Shown piece by piece: positions 55,896-62,801 of a stretch of 64,000 nt of DNA. Position 1 is the stretch's first letter. The number at the start of each line of letters is the position of its first letter. The notes below the pieces were generated by a model that had not been told where the DNA came from, did no database searches, and was given only the letters and a program-made list of their open reading frames with translations. Origin of the DNA: an uncultured Actinomycetes bacterium (GTDB lineage: Bacteria; Actinomycetota; Thermoleophilia; Gaiellales; Gaiellaceae); contig CAWDGK010000003.1 in NCBI GenBank assembly GCA_963801855.1, positions 45,066 through 109,065 of the forward strand, written 5' to 3'. Made by a program: the position numbers and the translations under genes.

Positions 55896-57824
55896 TCAGA
55901 GGCTCTGGGGATCGACGTCGACTGTCGCACTGACTCCAAGCTTCCGCATCTCCGGCGCAGCCGCAGCGAGCAGGCGCGCCGACCGCGAGGCCACGGCGCG
56001 GACACGATCGGTCTTCGCCAGGAGCTGCGCTCGATGGTGGCCTCGAAGCCGGAGGAGTGGCGCCGGCCCGAGCACGCGCGCCTCCTCCGAGGCGAGCCCC
56101 GACGCGATCTCGGCGAGCAGGCGCATGGGGTCGCGCTCGTCCGGGCCGGCCGCGACGACTCGAACGAGGTGGCCGAATGGCGGATAGCCGAGCTCCCGGC
56201 GCCGCTCGAGCTCCTCGGCGAGGAATCGGGCGACGTCGTGCCGGGCCGCATGCACGATCGGCCGCGCGTCCGGCTGAAACGTCTGGACGATGACCCGGCC
56301 CGGCGCATCGCGACCGCTTCTTCCTGCGAGCTGCGTCACGAGCTGGAACGTCCGTTCTTCGGCCCGGAAATCCGGCATGGCGAGCCCGGTGTCCGCATCG
56401 ACGACCGCCGCGAGGGCGACGCCGGCGAAGTGGTGGCCCTTCGCGACCATCTGGGTCCCGACCAGGACCGCCCGATCTGTCTCGGCGAACCTGCGGAGAG
56501 CGGCGGCGAGCTCGCCGGGCCGGCGAACGGAGTCGGCGTCGAGCCGGATCCGCTCGAGCCCCGGAACCTTCTGCGCCAGCTCCTTCTCGAGCTTCTGGGT
56601 GCCCGCGCCGATGCGGGTGAGCTCGGGTGAGCCGCACTCAGGGCAAGCCTCACCCGTCTCCTCGGCGTGGGAGCAGTGGTGGCAGTGGAGGCGTCCGTCG
56701 GAGTGGAGCACGAGCGCGACGTCGCAGTTCGGGCACCGGCGGGTCTTGCCGCATGCACGGCAGTGAAGAGCAGGGGCGATCCCGCGCCGGTTCAGCAGGA
56801 GGATCGCCTTGCCGCCGTTCTCCTCGAGCGCCGCGAGCTCGGCGAGGAGCGGTGCCGAGAGCGGATAGCCCGCTTCCCGGCGGAGGTCGACGACCTTGAC
56901 GACCGGGAGCGGGCCGGCGAGGCGCTCGCCGAGCTCGAGCCGTTCCAGCGCCTGCCAGCTCTCGGGCCGCGGAGTCGCGGTTCCGAAGATGGCTACGGCG
57001 CCTTCGAGCCCGGCTCGCTTGGCGGCGACGGTGCGCGCGTCGTAACGGGGGTCGGACTCCTGTTTGTAGGAGGGGTCGTGCTCCTCGTCGACGCAGACGA
57101 CGCCGAGCCGGGCGACCGGCGCGAAGACGGCCGACCGCGCGCCGACGACGACAGGCGCAGCCCCGCTCGCGATTCGGGCGCGCTCGTCGCGCCGCTCTGC
57201 CTCCGTGAGCCCCGAATGGAGAATGGCGACGCGGTCACCGAATCGCGCGCGCAGCCGGCCCACGGTTTGCGGGGCAAGCGCGATCTCGGGGACGAGGACG
57301 ATCGCGCTGCGCCCTCGCTCGAGCGCCGCGGCACAGGCCTGGAGATAGACCTCGGTCTTGCCGCTTCCCGTCGCACCCTGGAGCAGGAAGTTGCCGCCGC
57401 CGGAGTCCATCGCCTCGACGATGCGCTCGAGCGACCGTTGCTGACTCTCGCTCAACGAGTCTGGCTCGGCCTCGCCGCCGAGCGCGTCCCGCTCGCCGGG
57501 CGAGGGCCTTTCGCCGCGAGCTTTCCGCTTCAGCGGCGCGACGAGCTCGAGGGCGCGGGCGGGTGTCGAGCCGTAGTAGTCGGCCAACCAGAGTGCGAGG
57601 TCGACGAGCGGCCCGGGCAGCTGGTCGACGACGTCCCCGACGGGCACCGCCTTGACGCCTTCCGGCGGGCTCTCCTCGAGCCCGACGACGACTCCACGAC
57701 GTCGTGCCCCGTTGAAAAAGAGCGAAACGACCGCGCCCTTTCCGACGTCCTCCGGCACTTCGTAGGTGAAGGGTCGGGCAACCGCCCGTGAGGACACGAG
57801 CGGATACACCGACGCGTACGGCAC
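55896..57824 (-). CDS. priA: Primosomal protein N' (replication restart helicase PriA)
   Basis: I placed the start at GTG 57824 (VPYASVYPLVSSRAVARPFTYEVP). It has GATGSGKTEVY, DEEHD and the Cys4-Cys4 zinc region CRACG..CPNC...CHHC..CPEC. The ORF part upstream of 57824 is antisense to the ABC ATPase gene. Confidence 0.9.
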   Translation of the reverse strand: MPYASVYPLVSSRAVARPFTYEVPEDVGKGAVVSLFFNGARRRGVVVGLEESPPEGVKAVPVGDVVDQLPGPLVDLALWLADYYGSTPARALELVAPLKRKARGERPSPGERDALGGEAEPDSLSESQQRSLERIVEAMDSGGGNFLLQGATGSGKTEVYLQACAAALERGRSAIVLVPEIALAPQTVGRLRARFGDRVAILHSGLTEAERRDERARIASGAAPVVVGARSAVFAPVARLGVVCVDEEHDPSYKQESDPRYDARTVAAKRAGLEGAVAIFGTATPRPESWQALERLELGERLAGPLPVVKVVDLRREAGYPLSAPLLAELAALEENGGKAILLLNRRGIAPALHCRACGKTRRCPNCDVALVLHSDGRLHCHHCSHAEETGEACPECGSPELTRIGAGTQKLEKELAQKVPGLERIRLDADSVRRPGELAAALRRFAETDRAVLVGTQMVAKGHHFAGVALAAVVDADTGLAMPDFRAEERTFQLVTQLAGRSGRDAPGRVIVQTFQPDARPIVHAARHDVARFLAEELERRRELGYPPFGHLVRVVAAGPDERDPMRLLAEIASGLASEEARVLGPAPLLRLRGHHRAQLLAKTDRVRAVASRSARLLAAAAPEMRKLGVSATVDVDPQSL

Positions 57825-57849
57825 GGCGGCCAGCGTACTGGCGCCCTCT

Positions 57850-57867
57850 TGTAAGGTGCCCCTTACA
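57850..57867. promoter_or_regulatory. 18 bp palindrome TGTAAGG-tgcc-CCTTACA, candidate DtxR-family operator
   Basis: Read directly from the sequence. It abuts the ATG at 57867 of the ABC ATPase gene and lies 26 nt from the divergent priA start. A second copy lies at 58901..58918. Confidence 0.6.
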
Positions 57868-58886
57868 TGGACTGCGGAATGGTGTGCGCGCACGACGTCT
57901 CGAAGCGCTTCGGCGACGTCGCTGCCGTGGACGGCGCCGACCTGTGCGTCGAGCGCGGCGAGTTCGTCGCGCTTCTCGGCCCGAGCGGATGTGGGAAGAC
58001 GACGCTGCTCCGCCTGATCGCGGGCTTCGAGCGGCCGGACACGGGCACGGTCGCCATCGCAGGGCGGCGCGTCGCCGGTGGCACCTGGGTCGCCCCCGAG
58101 CGCCGCAATGTGGGCATGGTGTTCCAGGACTACGCCCTCTTCCCGCACCTCACGGTGGCGGAGAACGTCGGCTTCGGACTGACCCGGAGCGACCGGTCCT
58201 CCCGGGTCGCCGACGCGCTGGCCCTGGTCGGCCTCGCCGGTCTCGACGCGCGCTACCCGGCCGAGCTGTCGGGCGGGCAGCAGCAGCGAGTCGCCCTCGC
58301 CCGCGCTCTCGCGCCGCGGCCGGGAGTCGTCCTTCTCGACGAGCCGTGGAGCAACATCGACCCGCTCATGCGCGCCTCGATGCGCGACGAGCTCTGCTCG
58401 ATTCTCAGGGAAGCCGACGTGACCGTCGTGCTGGTCACGCACGAGCGCGAAGAGGCCTTTTCCCTCGCCGACAGGATCGCGCTGATGCAGGGTGGGACGA
58501 TCGTCCAGGCCGGCTCGCCCGAGGAGATCTACTTCGAGCCCGCCAGCCGCTGGGCCGCCGAGTTCGTCGGCGCGGCCAACCTGGTCGCGGGACGCCTCGC
58601 CGGCGGCCATGTCGAGACCGCGATCGGCGATTTCGCAGCCGAGTGCGGCAACGGGCACGCGCCGGTCGACGTGCTCGTCCGGCCGGAGCTGATCGAGTTG
58701 CGGCCCGATCCGGCGGGCGCGGGATTCGTCGTCGGCCGCGAGTTCCGGGGTCACGACGTCTTCTACCGCGTCCGGTTGGACGACGGCAGCGAGCTCTGCT
58801 CGCACCGTCCCTCGACGGAACGGGTCTCGCTCGGAGACCGGGTTGCAGTCGTCCCCCACGCAGGTCGCGTCGCCATCTTCGACTGA
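57867..58886 (+). CDS. ABC transporter ATP-binding protein (FbpC/PotA-like, iron(III)-type importer)
   Basis: It has GPSGCGKTT, LSGGQQQRVALARAL, VLLDEP and a C-terminal TOBE-like domain. The start may be ATG 57867 or ATG 57879. Confidence 0.88.
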   Translation: MDCGMVCAHDVSKRFGDVAAVDGADLCVERGEFVALLGPSGCGKTTLLRLIAGFERPDTGTVAIAGRRVAGGTWVAPERRNVGMVFQDYALFPHLTVAENVGFGLTRSDRSSRVADALALVGLAGLDARYPAELSGGQQQRVALARALAPRPGVVLLDEPWSNIDPLMRASMRDELCSILREADVTVVLVTHEREEAFSLADRIALMQGGTIVQAGSPEEIYFEPASRWAAEFVGAANLVAGRLAGGHVETAIGDFAAECGNGHAPVDVLVRPELIELRPDPAGAGFVVGREFRGHDVFYRVRLDDGSELCSHRPSTERVSLGDRVAVVPHAGRVAIFD

Positions 58887-58900
58887 TCGCTCCTCGCTCT

Positions 58901-58918
58901 TGTAAGGTCACCCTTACA
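58901..58918. promoter_or_regulatory. 18 bp palindrome TGTAAGG-tcac-CCTTACA, candidate DtxR-family operator
   Basis: Read directly from the sequence. It lies 33 nt upstream of the substrate-binding protein ATG (58952), which has an AAGGAGG box. The flank ctcTTGTAAGGT is shared with the copy at 57850. Confidence 0.6.
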
Positions 58919-58951
58919 CACGGTGTCAGGGATACCTAACAAGGAGGCAGA

Positions 58952-59968
58952 ATGAAGTCTTGGGTGCTCCTCGGGGCCGTGGCGTTTGCGCTCGCCGGTT
59001 GCGGCGGCGATGACGGCACGGGCTCGGGCGAAGGGAAGCTGACGATCTACTCGGGCCGCGAGGAAGAGCTCGTCGCCCCGCTGATCGAGCAGTTCGAGAA
59101 GTCGAGCGGCATCGACGCCGAGGTTCGATACGGAGAGAGCGCGGAGCTCGCTGCGACGATCGCCGAAGAGGGAGACAACACGCCGGCCGACGTGTTCTTC
59201 GCGCAGGATCCAGGCTCACTGGGTGCGGTCGAGAGCGAAGGCCTCCTCGCCGAGCTGCCGGAGGAAGTCCTGGCGCTCGTGGACGAGCGGTACCGCGACT
59301 CGGACGGCCGCTGGGTGGGGACGAGCGGTCGAGTCCGCGTCATCGCCTACAACACGGAGGAGGTCCCCGAGCAGGAGGTTCCCGAATCGGTCTTCGAGCT
59401 GACGGACCCCCGGTGGAAGGGGAAGGTCGGGATCGCGCCGACGAACGGCTCCTTCCAGGCGTTCGTGACCGCCATGCGGTTGACGGCCGGCGAGGACAGG
59501 ACACGTGAATGGCTCGAGGGCATGAAGGCAAACGGCGCGAGGCTCTACGAGAAGAACACACCGATCGTCGAAGCCGTCGCCGCGGGAGAGCTGGAGCTCG
59601 GCCTCGTCAACCACTACTACCTCAGCCTGGTGAAGGAGGAGAGCCCGGACGCGCCGGTCGCCAACTCCTACCTCTCGTCGAACGACCCGGGCGCGCTCGT
59701 GAGCGCGGCGGGCGTGGCGATCCTGGACGCCTCGGACAACGAGGACGCAGCACGCGAGTTCGTCGAATATCTCCTGTCCGAGGAGGGCCAGCGGTTCTAC
59801 GTCGAGGACGCGGAGGAGTCGGAGTACCCGCTGATCGAAGGCGTCGCACCGAAGGAGGGCTTGCCGCCCCTCGACGAGATCCAGGGGCCTGACGTCGAGC
59901 TCGACCAGTTCGGCGCCGAACTGGAGAAGACCCTCGAGCTCCTGAACGAGGTCGGCCTGACGACATGA
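58952..59968 (+). CDS. ABC transporter substrate-binding lipoprotein (FbpA/AfuA-like iron(III) binding)
   Basis: It has the lipobox LAGCGG and a typical periplasmic binding protein composition. The stop overlaps the permease start (ATGA). Confidence 0.82.
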   Translation: MKSWVLLGAVAFALAGCGGDDGTGSGEGKLTIYSGREEELVAPLIEQFEKSSGIDAEVRYGESAELAATIAEEGDNTPADVFFAQDPGSLGAVESEGLLAELPEEVLALVDERYRDSDGRWVGTSGRVRVIAYNTEEVPEQEVPESVFELTDPRWKGKVGIAPTNGSFQAFVTAMRLTAGEDRTREWLEGMKANGARLYEKNTPIVEAVAAGELELGLVNHYYLSLVKEESPDAPVANSYLSSNDPGALVSAAGVAILDASDNEDAAREFVEYLLSEEGQRFYVEDAEESEYPLIEGVAPKEGLPPLDEIQGPDVELDQFGAELEKTLELLNEVGLTT

Positions 59969-61551
59969 GCGGAGGCCCACGGCGAGCCCGCCCACCGCTT
60001 GCTCTTGCGGCGGCTGGGCTCGCCGTCGTCGCCTTCCTGTCGCTTCCGCTCGTCTATCTCGTCCTCCGGGCGGTCTCGGGCGACGCGTGGGACGTCCTCG
60101 TCTCCGGCAACCTCGGCCGGCTGATCTGGGAGACCGGCGTGCTGGTCGCGCTCGTGACGCTCAGCGCCCTCGCGCTCGGCGTGCCGCTGGCCTGGCTGGT
60201 CGTGCGATCCGATCTGCCTGGAAGCGCGATCTGGGGCACCGCGGCTGCTCTTCCTCTGGTTGTTCCCAGCTACGTCGCCGCGCTCGTGTTGCTCGCGGCG
60301 TTCGGGCCGCGCGGACTGCTCCAGCGGGTCCTGGAGCCGCTGGGCGTGGAGCGGGTGCCCGAGATCTACGGGCTGCCTGGCGCCTGGCTCGCGTTGACCG
60401 TCTCCACGTACCCGTTCGTGTTTCTCCTCGCGGCCTCCGCCCTCCGCTCGCTCGATCCGGCGCTCGAGGATGCGGCGCGCGGGCTGGGCCGTTCGCCCTT
60501 CGACGCCTTCCGGCGGGTGACACTTCCCGTTCTCCGGCCCTCACTCGGCGCCGGCGCGCTGCTCGTCGCGCTGTACGTCCTCTCGGACTTCGGCGCGGTC
60601 TCGCTCATGCAGTACGACTCGCTGACCCGCGCGATCTTTCTCCAGTACCGCTCTCTCTTCGATCGAGCTCCTGCGGCCATGCTCGCGCTCGTGCTCGTCG
60701 TGCTGACCGGCCTCGTGCTCGTACTCGAGCTCAGGATGCGCGGCCGCGCTCTTGCCCGCTACCAGCGGACGGGGACGGGCGCCGCGAGACGATCCACGCG
60801 CGTCGCGCTTGGCCGCTGGCGCTGGCCCGCGCTCGCGTTCTGCTCCTTGGTGGTCGGGTTCGCGCTCGTGGTGCCGGTCGCAGTCCTCGTCTACTGGGCG
60901 GCAGGTCGCTCCGAGGCCGTCGACTGGAGCTGGGAGCCGGTCGTCGGCTCCGTCAGCGTCTCGCTCGTCGCTGCGGCTGTGGCCGTCCTGGCGACCCTGC
61001 CGGTGGCGATCCTCGCCGTTCGCTACCCGTCCGGCTGGACGACCGCGCTCGAACGGCTCTCCTACGCAGGAAACGCGCTGCCCGGAATCGTGATCGCGCT
61101 CGCGCTCGTGTTCTTCGCGGCCAACTACGCGGCGCCGCTCTACCAGACACTCGCCTTGCTGGTATTTGCGTACGTCGTGCGCTTCTTTCCGCAGGCGCTC
61201 GCCGGCTCGCACTCGGCGCTCGTCCGGGTGAGCCCACGCCTCGAGGAGGCCGCCCGGGGGCTCGGTCGGAGCCCGGGTGCGGTCTTTGCACGGGTCACGG
61301 CACCGCTCGTCGCACCGGGCTTGCTCGCAGGCGGCGCGCTCGTCTTCCTCAGCACGATGAAGGAGCTGCCCGCGACGCTGCTCCTGAGGCCGATCGGCTT
61401 CGAGACGCTCGCCACGGAGGTCTGGAAGTACACCTCGGTCGCCTCGTACTCGCAGGCGGCGCTCCCGGCGCTCGTCCTGATCGTCGTGTCCGCGCCGTTC
61501 GTCTACCTGCTCGGCGTCCGCTCGGGATCGGAGACGGGGCCGCCCGGGTAG
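59965..61551 (+). CDS. ABC transporter permease, duplicated 6-TM type (FbpB-like)
   Basis: 528 aa and hydrophobic. There are two EAA-type loops (LEDAARGLGRSPFDAFRRVTLP and LEEAARGLGRSPGAVFARVTAP). Confidence 0.88.
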   Translation: MSGGPRRARPPLALAAAGLAVVAFLSLPLVYLVLRAVSGDAWDVLVSGNLGRLIWETGVLVALVTLSALALGVPLAWLVVRSDLPGSAIWGTAAALPLVVPSYVAALVLLAAFGPRGLLQRVLEPLGVERVPEIYGLPGAWLALTVSTYPFVFLLAASALRSLDPALEDAARGLGRSPFDAFRRVTLPVLRPSLGAGALLVALYVLSDFGAVSLMQYDSLTRAIFLQYRSLFDRAPAAMLALVLVVLTGLVLVLELRMRGRALARYQRTGTGAARRSTRVALGRWRWPALAFCSLVVGFALVVPVAVLVYWAAGRSEAVDWSWEPVVGSVSVSLVAAAVAVLATLPVAILAVRYPSGWTTALERLSYAGNALPGIVIALALVFFAANYAAPLYQTLALLVFAYVVRFFPQALAGSHSALVRVSPRLEEAARGLGRSPGAVFARVTAPLVAPGLLAGGALVFLSTMKELPATLLLRPIGFETLATEVWKYTSVASYSQAALPALVLIVVSAPFVYLLGVRSGSETGPPG

Positions 61552-61561
61552 GCTGCCTGCG

Positions 61562-62245
61562 ATGGCGCAGGGGCACTCCGTCGACGAATACCTGGAGACG
61601 ATCTACTTCCTCGCCTTCCCGATCGGCGAGTACCGGCCCCTCAACACCGGCTCGCCCACGCTCGCCTCGCGTGTGGCCGAGATGCTCGGCGTCTCCCGCG
61701 CTTCGGCCGGCGAGATGCTGAAGCGCCTCGAAGCCGAAGGGCTGATCGAGCGCGGCGAGCAGAAAGAGGCAGTGTTGACCGCCTCCGGCCGGACGCGCGC
61801 GGAAGGCGTCGTGCGGAAGCATCGGATCATCGAGCGGCTCCTGACGGACTTCATGGGCTACAGCGCGGCGGAGGCTCACGTCCACGCTGACGAGCTCGGC
61901 GACACATTCAACGACGACATGGTCGAGCGCATCGCCACCAAGCTGGGAAACCCGGAGCGCTGCCCCCACGGCTGGCCGGTGGAGCCCGACGTGGAGCGCG
62001 CCGAGAACGATGAGCTGATCGCGCTCGCCGAGCTGGACGCCGGCGCGAAGGCGACGATCATCCGCCTCGCGGAGCACGACGGCGACCTGCTCCACTGGTT
62101 CTACGACCAGGGCTTCGAGCCCGGCCGCGAGCTCCAGATGACCGCTGCGGACCCGTCGGCGGGCAGCTTCCGCGTCAAGCTGAACGGCCGCGAGGCGACG
62201 GTCGCCGAGAAGGCGGCCGCCGGGCTCTTCGTCAGGCCGTCGTAG
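61562..62245 (+). CDS. DtxR/IdeR/MntR-family metal-dependent transcriptional repressor with C-terminal FeoA/SH3-like domain
   Basis: It has the winged-helix region VSRASAGEMLKRLEAEGLIER, the dimerisation/metal-site region RKHRIIERLLTDFMGY...AHVHADELGDTF...CPHG, and a C-terminal SH3-like domain. Confidence 0.88.
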   Translation: MAQGHSVDEYLETIYFLAFPIGEYRPLNTGSPTLASRVAEMLGVSRASAGEMLKRLEAEGLIERGEQKEAVLTASGRTRAEGVVRKHRIIERLLTDFMGYSAAEAHVHADELGDTFNDDMVERIATKLGNPERCPHGWPVEPDVERAENDELIALAELDAGAKATIIRLAEHDGDLLHWFYDQGFEPGRELQMTAADPSAGSFRVKLNGREATVAEKAAAGLFVRPS

Positions 62246-62801
62246 TCCTGTAGAGGACGTAGCGCGCAACGCGGCGGTCGTAGCGGTACAGGCGGGACCG
62301 TTGAGCGGTGGCGAAGCGCTCCTTCAACCGCAACTCCAGCCCCTTCACGCTCGGGTCCAGATCCGTGAGCTCCGCGGAGAAGCCCGTGAGCCGACCGTCG
62401 TTCGGAGCGACGTAGTGGAAGAGGAAGCGCGGCCGGGGACAGGGGCGGCGATTGGCGAGCTGGACGACTGCGACCTCCCCTCTCGCCGGACCGCCGCGAA
62501 GAACGTAGAAGACCTCGCGTCTCCCGACGAGCCCATTGGCTTCCGGTGCTCGAAGCGTCTCGAGGGTTCCGTTCCAGACGGCTGAGACGGGGTAGCGCTT
62601 CGAATTCCCGCATCGATCCTCGATGGCCACCGACCACCTCGAGTAGGTGTGACCGGAATCGACGTCGAGCAAGCCGACTGCACGTTCGGCGGCCCGGTCG
62701 CCGTCGAGGTTCGCGCTGCGGGTGACATAGGGGCCACTTGGATGGCCGGCGGGCGCCGAGGGAACGACGAGGAGCGCAAGCAGGAAGACGAGACGCCTCA
62801 C
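62232..62801 (-). CDS. Secreted hypothetical protein
   Basis: 189 aa. It has the signal peptide MRRLVFLLALLVVPSAPAG and a globular composition. I recognise no motif. Confidence 0.6.
   Translation of the reverse strand: MRRLVFLLALLVVPSAPAGHPSGPYVTRSANLDGDRAAERAVGLLDVDSGHTYSRWSVAIEDRCGNSKRYPVSAVWNGTLETLRAPEANGLVGRREVFYVLRGGPARGEVAVVQLANRRPCPRPRFLFHYVAPNDGRLTGFSAELTDLDPSVKGLELRLKERFATAQRSRLYRYDRRVARYVLYRTTTA

Follow-up and report, generated by a model that had tools for sequence, protein, structure and literature searches.

A conserved palindrome as the probable operator of a DtxR-family metalloregulator at an iron-importer locus of Gaiellaceae

The 18-bp palindrome TGTAAGG-N4-CCTTACA occurs in two exact copies in a stretch of 64,000 nucleotides (called the window below) from an uncultured bacterium of the family Gaiellaceae (GenBank assembly GCA_963801855.1, contig CAWDGK010000003.1, positions 45,066 to 109,065). 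Both copies lie at the genes of an FbpABC-type ABC importer, which are followed by the gene of a DtxR-family metalloregulator at 61562–62245. The palindromes are very probably the operators of this adjacent regulator, as had been proposed in a preliminary description made from the letters of the window alone. The assignment is made because the site accompanies the orthologous regulator and the promoters of metal importers through at least four different gene layouts, and the operator reading is well supported by this phylogenetic footprinting. Moreover, it is likely that the full scheme applies, in which the metal-loaded regulator, most likely carrying Fe2+, binds the palindromes and represses the importer.

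The Gaiellaceae, actinobacteria that abound in soil, are nearly all uncultured, and the operator consensus marks iron-uptake genes across this family. The action of a metal-loaded DtxR-type repressor on iron-importer promoters is textbook logic and already known. New here are the box itself, in its sequence and its apparent one-dimer format, the use of this box throughout an uncultured family, the exchange of importers next to it, and the non-canonical sensor site of the regulator. In the searchable literature, no paper was found that pairs Gaiella or Thermoleophilia with IdeR or DtxR, and nothing was found on metal regulation in Gaiellaceae. Similarly, a full-text search for the letters of the motif returned unrelated primer and sequence matches only.

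Palindrome copies and their conservation in relatives

The first copy, site 1 (TGTAAGGTGCCCCTTACA, TGTAAGG-TGCC-CCTTACA; 57850–57867), lies in the 42-bp divergent spacer between the GTG of priA at 57824 and the ATG of the importer ATPase gene at 57867, and its final A (57867) is the A of that ATG. Site 2 (TGTAAGGTCACCCTTACA, TGTAAGG-TCAC-CCTTACA; 58901–58918) is located between the ATPase gene and the gene of the substrate-binding protein, 15 nt past the ATPase stop (58886) and 33 nt ahead of the next ATG (58952). The presence of two exact copies, the abutment of the first on the ATPase start within the spacer shared with priA, and the position of the second upstream of an AAGGAGG box all agree with the earlier account. 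A weaker site 3 (TGTCAGGGATACCTAACA, TGTCAGG-GATA-CCTAACA; 58924–58941), with two mismatches, begins 5 bp past site 2, the distance from centre to centre being 23 bp. Its end abuts or enters the AAGGAGG box, the ribosome-binding site of the binding-protein gene. As palindromes, the three sites are listed without a strand. With up to two mismatches allowed, the window contains these three matches, compared with an expectation of 0.02 in shuffled sequence.

The host assembly comprises 2.63 Mb in six contigs and is 86% complete. No further copy with zero or one mismatch was found across it, and a single match with two mismatches lies elsewhere, on contig C5 at 492220. Neither this match nor the copies with three mismatches are in excess of a reversed-pattern control, the latter numbering eight against 34. 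The wider regulon that a genome-wide motif scan had been expected to define therefore did not appear, and in this genome the regulon would consist of the importer operon alone.

The conservation of the site was followed in 80 related loci from species-representative genomes, nearly all labelled as metagenome-assembled genomes of Gaiellaceae, Gaiellales, Thermoleophilia or Actinomycetes, with regulators 74–91% identical to that of the host. The exact palindrome is present in 61 of them and a version with one or two mismatches in 12 more, while seven have none; the reversed pattern was found in 0 of the 80. In 73 of the 80 loci, the palindrome stands between priA and the orthologous regulator gene, whatever the cargo. 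Of the seven loci without a site, two lack a cargo gene and three are contigs that start within the permease gene. In most loci, the site is located 30–100 bp from the start codon of the regulator.

The flanks of the locus are stable and its content is not. priA and the regulator gene are syntenic in nearly all 80 loci, and the genes between them vary. About 12 loci share the FbpABC-like layout of the host, with two sites and a weak third. The majority carry a ZIP/ZupT-like carrier gene divergent from the regulator, with one site in a spacer of 33–90 bp. Other layouts include an EfeU/FTR1 permease gene divergent from the regulator, a 4.3-kb cassette with an FTR1-family gene and two to three sites, and, in some loci, no cargo at all. 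Since the importers differ and the site stays, the site follows the importer promoter and the regulator through varied layouts. In other words, at a single chromosomal position at least four different importers appear to have come under one repressor–operator pair, which makes the locus a natural experiment. The interval from priA to the regulator (57825–62245 in the host; loci L035 to L114 among the relatives) can be described as a swap site. In one relative (L039), the importer has been lost and the palindrome is retained together with the first bases past it. Another (L121) has a MetK-like gene 3' of the regulator.

Within the FbpABC-type loci, the arrangement of the host sites is itself preserved. 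The position of site 1 is kept in ten of them (L042, L045, L046, L050, L078, L079, L083, L087, L111 and L124), and site 2 is conserved in all 11 that were aligned. The same 11 loci also have a degenerate second palindrome at the position of site 3, commonly TGTCAGG-N4-CCTCACA. Across the collected sites, the arms are constant and the 4 bp between them vary freely; this profile is circular in part, since the pattern itself was used to pick the sites.

The taxonomic distribution of the motif is narrow. Exact sites were found in 29 of 39 genomes of the genus, with one to three per genome and none for the reversed control, and in 72 of 201 genomes of the order, where the reversed control was absent from all 201. 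Within Gaiellaceae, the site is present in 67 of the 75 sampled genomes and in 21 of the 22 sampled genera, and in four sister families it was found in only 4 of 125 genomes. At least two of these four exceptions carry the regulator: in G092, an ortholog of 70% identity lies 2.6 and 3.65 kb from two sites, and in G156 the site has a ZIP gene on one side and, at the contig end, a regulator fragment on the other. The remaining two (G062 and G077) belong to a family with orthologs of 52–54% identity, and their sites precede FbpA-like operons. In the sister family f4, neither the motif nor a palindrome common to the loci lies within 1.5 kb of the four orthologs of 52% identity (L025 to L028); the motif is found elsewhere in two f4 genomes, before FbpA-like operons. 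Most of the sampled sister-family genomes have only the MntR-type paralog, a second DtxR-family gene. This distribution supports the view that the motif tracks regulators of the adjacent type and not the MntR-type paralog.

The same data bear on the possibility that the palindrome is bound by another factor, namely the MntR-type paralog, a Fur-family protein or an ArsR-type protein, with the adjacent regulator acting elsewhere. Such candidates are at hand, as most genomes of the genus carry the MntR-type paralog and 32 of the 39 a Fur-family gene. Additionally, two assemblies, 65% and 60% complete (G004 and G019), have the site, and no ortholog of the adjacent regulator was found in them. However, the MntR-type paralog occurs in all the sister families sampled, where the motif is almost never found, and no Fur-family gene was found in the host assembly. 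The motif follows the adjacent-regulator type even in the exceptions G092 and G156, its closeness to the regulator start codon in most loci speaks for the same partner, and its 5-4-5 geometry is that of DtxR-type dimers (PMC8464063). Binding by a different factor is accordingly given a low probability and regarded as very unlikely.

Beyond the priA–regulator interval, further sites in the genus are associated with other importers. In L116 to L120, a site away from the regulator precedes imelysin(EfeO)-FTR1 fusion operons; in L115, a site stands ahead of a lipoprotein-FTR1 operon; and in L123, two sites lie ahead of a DUF3386-Peripla_BP_2-FecCD operon. Every site whose context was inspected is at a metal importer gene or the regulator gene. 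Three of these loci (L116, L119 and L120) encode proteins of 770–797 aa with an FTR1/EfeU permease domain in the C-terminal third and a long N-terminal region without a Pfam match. The gene follows that of an imelysin-type lipoprotein and has the palindrome upstream.

A further reading places the function of the palindromes in RNA, as hairpins that control the stability, processing or translation of the importer mRNA, either as 7-bp stem-loops or as a long intercistronic hairpin, which is possible because sites 2 and 3 share half-sites. Each site does fold as a 7-bp hairpin (−7.5 to −8.5 kcal/mol, z −2.5 to −4), and the segment 58897–58955 folds at −21.1 kcal/mol (z −3.1), with CUCUUG pairing to CAAGGAG and thus covering part of the ribosome-binding site. 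Yet any DNA palindrome folds in silico, and the sequence of the arms itself is kept for regulators as little as 52% identical. At many loci, the site lies 0–3 nt before a start codon or within a 33-bp spacer between two divergent start codons, and would therefore be largely untranscribed. The 27 variant sites contain 33 deviating arm pairs, among which five are G–T wobbles, 28 are broken and none is compensated. For lack of any compensatory change, the RNA-hairpin reading was rejected despite its stable folds, and its probability is considered minimal.

The regulator in comparison with IdeR and MntR

The regulator (61562–62245, forward strand) is a protein of 227 aa with three domains, each above its Pfam cut-off: a winged-helix domain (PF01325, residues 6–64, 34.7 bits vs 26), a metal-binding and dimerisation domain (PF02742, residues 73–139, 72.8 bits vs 27), and an FeoA/SH3-like domain (PF04023, residues 154–226, 39 bits vs 23). 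Its best matches among solved structures are MntR of M. tuberculosis (5zr4), SloR of S. mutans (5cvi) and ScaR of S. gordonii (3hrs), with E values from 5e-22 for MntR to 5e-20; the value for IdeR is 6e-18. A regulator of the DtxR/IdeR/MntR type had been read at this position before. The family assignment stands, whereas neither the IdeR nor the MntR primary-site signature was matched. The protein is thus of the DtxR family by its domains and, as judged from its residues, falls outside the primary-site rules of both groups.

Residue correspondences were taken from an alignment to DtxR, IdeR and SloR, and conservation was counted over 81 orthologs. At the primary metal site, DtxR Met10 corresponds to Glu9 of the regulator (Glu in 80 of the 81), Cys102 to Asp110 and Glu105 to Gly113 (both invariant), and His106 to Asp114 (Asp or Glu in 78). 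The ancillary ligands are kept throughout, with DtxR His79, Glu83 and His98 represented by the invariant His87, Glu91 and His106. Moreover, Cys134 and His136, which form part of the CPHG motif of SloR and ScaR, are invariant, and so are Glu171-His172-Asp173 in the FeoA-like domain. The IdeR primary site (Met10/Cys102/Glu105/His106) is absent from the regulator, which scores 74 bits against a cut-off of 290 with NF053665. The MntR primary site (Asp/Glu ... Glu/Asp-x-x-Glu-His) is absent as well, Gly and Asp standing at the Glu-His positions; the best NCBIfam model, that of Thermus MntR (NF047407), gives 101 bits against a cut-off of 350. Because the primary site is non-canonical and conserved, the identity of the metal cannot be read from the sequence. 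The regulator is therefore a test case for metal selectivity, its primary-site ligands fitting neither the prediction rule for iron nor that for manganese.

Among 1.84 billion representatives searched, the nearest relatives outside Gaiellaceae are 40–50% identical, and most of them carry a DGC domain (PF08859) at the N-terminus, fused to the DtxR core (for instance, P0011, P0017, P0031 and P0033). In these fusions, conservation extends to the Cys/His and Glu/Asp positions and not to those of the primary site. Only at about 35% identity to the regulator does the canonical (C/H/E)-x-x-E-H signature return. It is possible, although doubtful, that the regulator represents a distinct sensory subclass of the DtxR family, acting as the iron sensor of Gaiellaceae through one-dimer boxes in leaderless promoters. 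Under such a view, the conserved carboxylate/Gly motif (E9, D110, G113, D/E114) would stand in for the canonical primary site, and metal sensing would rest on the His/Glu ligands together with the cluster of Cys134, His136 and E171-H172-D173.

The box can be compared with those of known family members. The IdeR/DtxR box is a 19-bp palindrome, TTAGGTTAGSCTAACCTAA, with four CCTAA repeats that is bound by two dimers, and at repressed genes these boxes overlap either the −10 region or the start of transcription (PMC10317159). For a lone IdeR dimer the site is TTAGGNNNNCCTAA, which has been proposed as a redefined 14-bp consensus (PMC8464063). The earlier account held the half-site to be similar to, and not identical with, the iron box. 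This can now be made precise, as the host core TAAGG-N4-CCTTA has the 5-4-5 geometry of the one-dimer site TTAGG-N4-CCTAA and differs from it by one base per half-site. Both have inverted pentamers, a 4-bp spacer and a CCT opening each repeat, and the host sites would, like IdeR/DtxR boxes, lie over the promoters or the starts of iron-uptake genes. Unlike the IdeR box, the host box has the pentamer CCTTA instead of CCTAA, two further conserved bases per flank (TG...CA), and two CCTTA repeats per site instead of four overlapping ones, which corresponds to a single-dimer format. Neither TTAGGNNNNCCTAA nor a 19-bp IdeR box within four mismatches was found in the host genome.

At the level of the protein, the regulator resembles IdeR and DtxR in its winged helix, its dimerisation domain and its SH3/FeoA-like domain, and in keeping the counterparts of Ser37, His79, Glu83 and His98. 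It differs from them in the Glu/Asp/Gly/Asp set at the primary site and in the recognition helix, where Pro39, Thr40 and Gln43 of DtxR are replaced by Ala, Ser and Glu. The Glu at the Gln43 position is shared with the manganese sensors MntR, SloR and ScaR, and the CPHG motif with SloR, whose Glu80, Cys123 and His125 also have matching residues in the regulator. In contrast to these sensors, the regulator lacks the E-x-x-E-H signature, and its predicted targets are iron importers and not MntH or MntABC. The relatives, for their part, possess a separate and genuine MntR-type paralog.

Putative promoters, proposed mechanism and the sensed metal

The sites abut or overlap start codons and contain the hexamer TAAGGT, which conforms to TANNNT. 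The order TANNNT-N7-start is the usual layout of leaderless actinobacterial genes. In site 1, TAAGGT (57852–57857, forward strand) would be the −10 element of a leaderless or near-leaderless ATPase mRNA. In site 2, the same hexamer (58903–58908, forward strand) may belong to an internal promoter for the binding-protein and permease genes. A candidate −10 element of priA, TACGCT, is found on the reverse strand at 57832–57837, followed by 7 nt and the GTG at 57824.

The regulator gene has a hexamer of its own, TAGGCT (61549–61554, forward strand), whose TAG is the stop codon of the permease gene and which stands 7 nt before the ATG. In the relatives, a TANNNT lies 6–8 nt ahead of the regulator start in 50 of 76 loci and 6–11 nt ahead in 63, which suggests that the regulator is leaderless and separately transcribed. 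The operon had been described as ending with the regulator. Its gene does follow that of the permease, but it is not simply the last gene, as a promoter of its own probably serves it in addition to any transcription reading through from the operon.

An asymmetry within the palindrome fits a −10 element embedded in the operator. In most loci, the strand of the transporter gene has T at position 8, which completes TAAGGT. In ten loci (L097, L100 and L102 to L109), a separate TANNNT is found on both sides; there, G replaces the T and makes the site a perfect 8-2-8 palindrome. Additionally, three loci (L078, L087 and L111) have a spacer of 18 bp between TTGACG and TANNNT that is occupied exactly by the first site ahead of the binding-protein gene.

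On these grounds, the following mechanism may be proposed. The metal-loaded regulator, most likely with Fe2+, would bind each TGTAAGG-N4-CCTTACA site as one dimer. At site 1, it would cover the −10-like TAAGGT and the start of the leaderless ATPase mRNA, and also the −35 region of the divergent priA. At sites 2 and 3, it would cover the second promoter and the leader of the genes for the ferric-binding protein and the permease, the extra occupancy before the former coming from the separate weak site 3. The bound repressor would block RNA polymerase, and under iron limitation it would be released, allowing expression of the FbpABC-type importer. In relatives, the same regulator–operator pair would control the adjoining iron importer, as well as EfeO-FTR1 or FecCD-type operons elsewhere in the genome.

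Whether iron or manganese is sensed had been left as a question, which now leans clearly towards iron by the types of importer and the separate MntR-type paralog. The binding protein of the host is a clear FbpA/HitA ferric-binding protein, which makes iron the most likely signal, and the predicted targets include FbpA-type, EfeU/EfeO-type and FecCD-type importers, with ZIP/ZupT-like carriers also present in relatives. The second DtxR-family gene of the relatives has the classical manganese signature D...D-R-L-E-H, scores 216 bits with the MntR model NF047407, and adjoins an Nramp gene in a sister family. Its presence makes iron the likely signal for the adjacent regulator. A third gene of the DtxR family, which might be a canonical IdeR, is absent from the genomes of the genus. 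Provided that the operator assignment holds, iron is thus the probable metal.

Several observations weigh against repression of the importer by an iron-loaded regulator at these sites. Two loci without cargo (L035 and L090) have the regulator and no nearby site. The primary metal site (E9/D110/G113/D114) is non-canonical, the closest solved relatives are the manganese sensors MntR (5zr4), SloR and ScaR, and the commonest cargo, ZIP, is usually a carrier of zinc, iron or manganese. The Fur-family gene that most genomes of the genus carry (and that was not found in the host assembly) could itself be the iron sensor. As for the promoters, the gap between TAAGGT and the ATPase ATG is 9 nt, against the commonest 7 nt for the TANNNT of the regulator, although it falls within the range seen. 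A scan of 57500–62400 with the sigma-70 consensus gave no promoter hits, for which reason the promoter reading rests on the TANNNT spacing in relatives.

Part of these observations would suit a variant in which operator and regulator are as described and the metal is manganese or zinc, the locus being a switch of manganese or zinc homeostasis. The kinship with manganese sensors, the Glu at the DtxR Gln43 position, the Thermus MntR model as the best NCBIfam match (though far under its cut-off) and the frequency of ZIP/ZupT-like carriers are in its favour, and the conserved Cys134/His136 site would suit zinc too. On the other hand, none of the FbpA/HitA, EfeU/FTR1, EfeO-type and FecCD/Peripla_BP_2 targets is a typical manganese or zinc importer, the classical manganese signature belongs to the separate paralog, and the regulator has no E-x-x-E-H primary site of the manganese type. 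Sensing of manganese or zinc is therefore judged unlikely, and iron-dependent repression by the adjacent regulator is preferred.

Genes of the locus and further observations

The left neighbour of the locus, conserved in relatives, is priA (55896–57824, reverse strand), which encodes the replication-restart helicase (TIGR00595, 516 bits). The importer genes follow on the forward strand. The ATPase gene (57867–58886) encodes an FbpC/PotA-like protein with a TOBE_2 tail (PF00005, PF08402), which scores 266 bits with the ferric ABC ATPase model NF008513, under the cut-off. The ribosome-binding site AAGGAGG, read from the sequence at 58941–58947 (forward strand), precedes the gene of an FbpA/HitA-type ferric-iron-binding lipoprotein (58952–59968). 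This protein matches PDB 7w3w with an E value of 3.6e-85 (289 bits) and H. influenzae FbpA with 187 bits, and matches also HitA 6iwf, Thermus 4elo, Haemophilus 1d9v and Neisseria 1d9y. The tandem tyrosine iron-ligand motif is kept in LVNHYYL, in which HYY is aligned with the YY of solved ferric-binding proteins. The next gene (59965–61551) encodes a fused, FbpB-like permease of two modules, with PF00528 matched in two stretches, and the regulator gene comes after it.

The FbpABC and HitABC ferric importers resemble the host system in the FbpA-type protein with tandem tyrosines, the fused double permease and the TOBE-tailed ATPase. The host operon is unlike them in that the ATPase gene comes first and in having a putative internal promoter, which carries an operator, ahead of the binding-protein gene. 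In Gram-negative bacteria, FbpABC/HitABC systems are usually controlled by Fur.

The N-terminus of the ATPase (57867–57896) reads MDCGMVCAH and contains a C-G-x-x-C-x-H motif. The motif recurs in seven of the FbpABC-type loci (L045, L046, L050, L078, L079, L087 and L111) and is absent from L042 and L083. Such a motif might serve as a small metal-binding tag of the ATPase.

Two further features were noted outside the window, in genome G000. On contig C5 (52697–55600), a ZIP fragment of 107 aa is found together with an MntR-type gene of the DtxR family that lies in two frames, which could be due to a frameshift or an assembly error. Both are near an ArsR-type regulator, and TTAGACATGCCTAA stands just upstream, at C5:54913. 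On contig C4 (44760–44804), a nested inverted repeat, TGTAAAGC-AGGC-TTGACA ... TGTCAA-GTTA-GCTTTACA, is located directly before an ATG and is probably the operator of another regulator.

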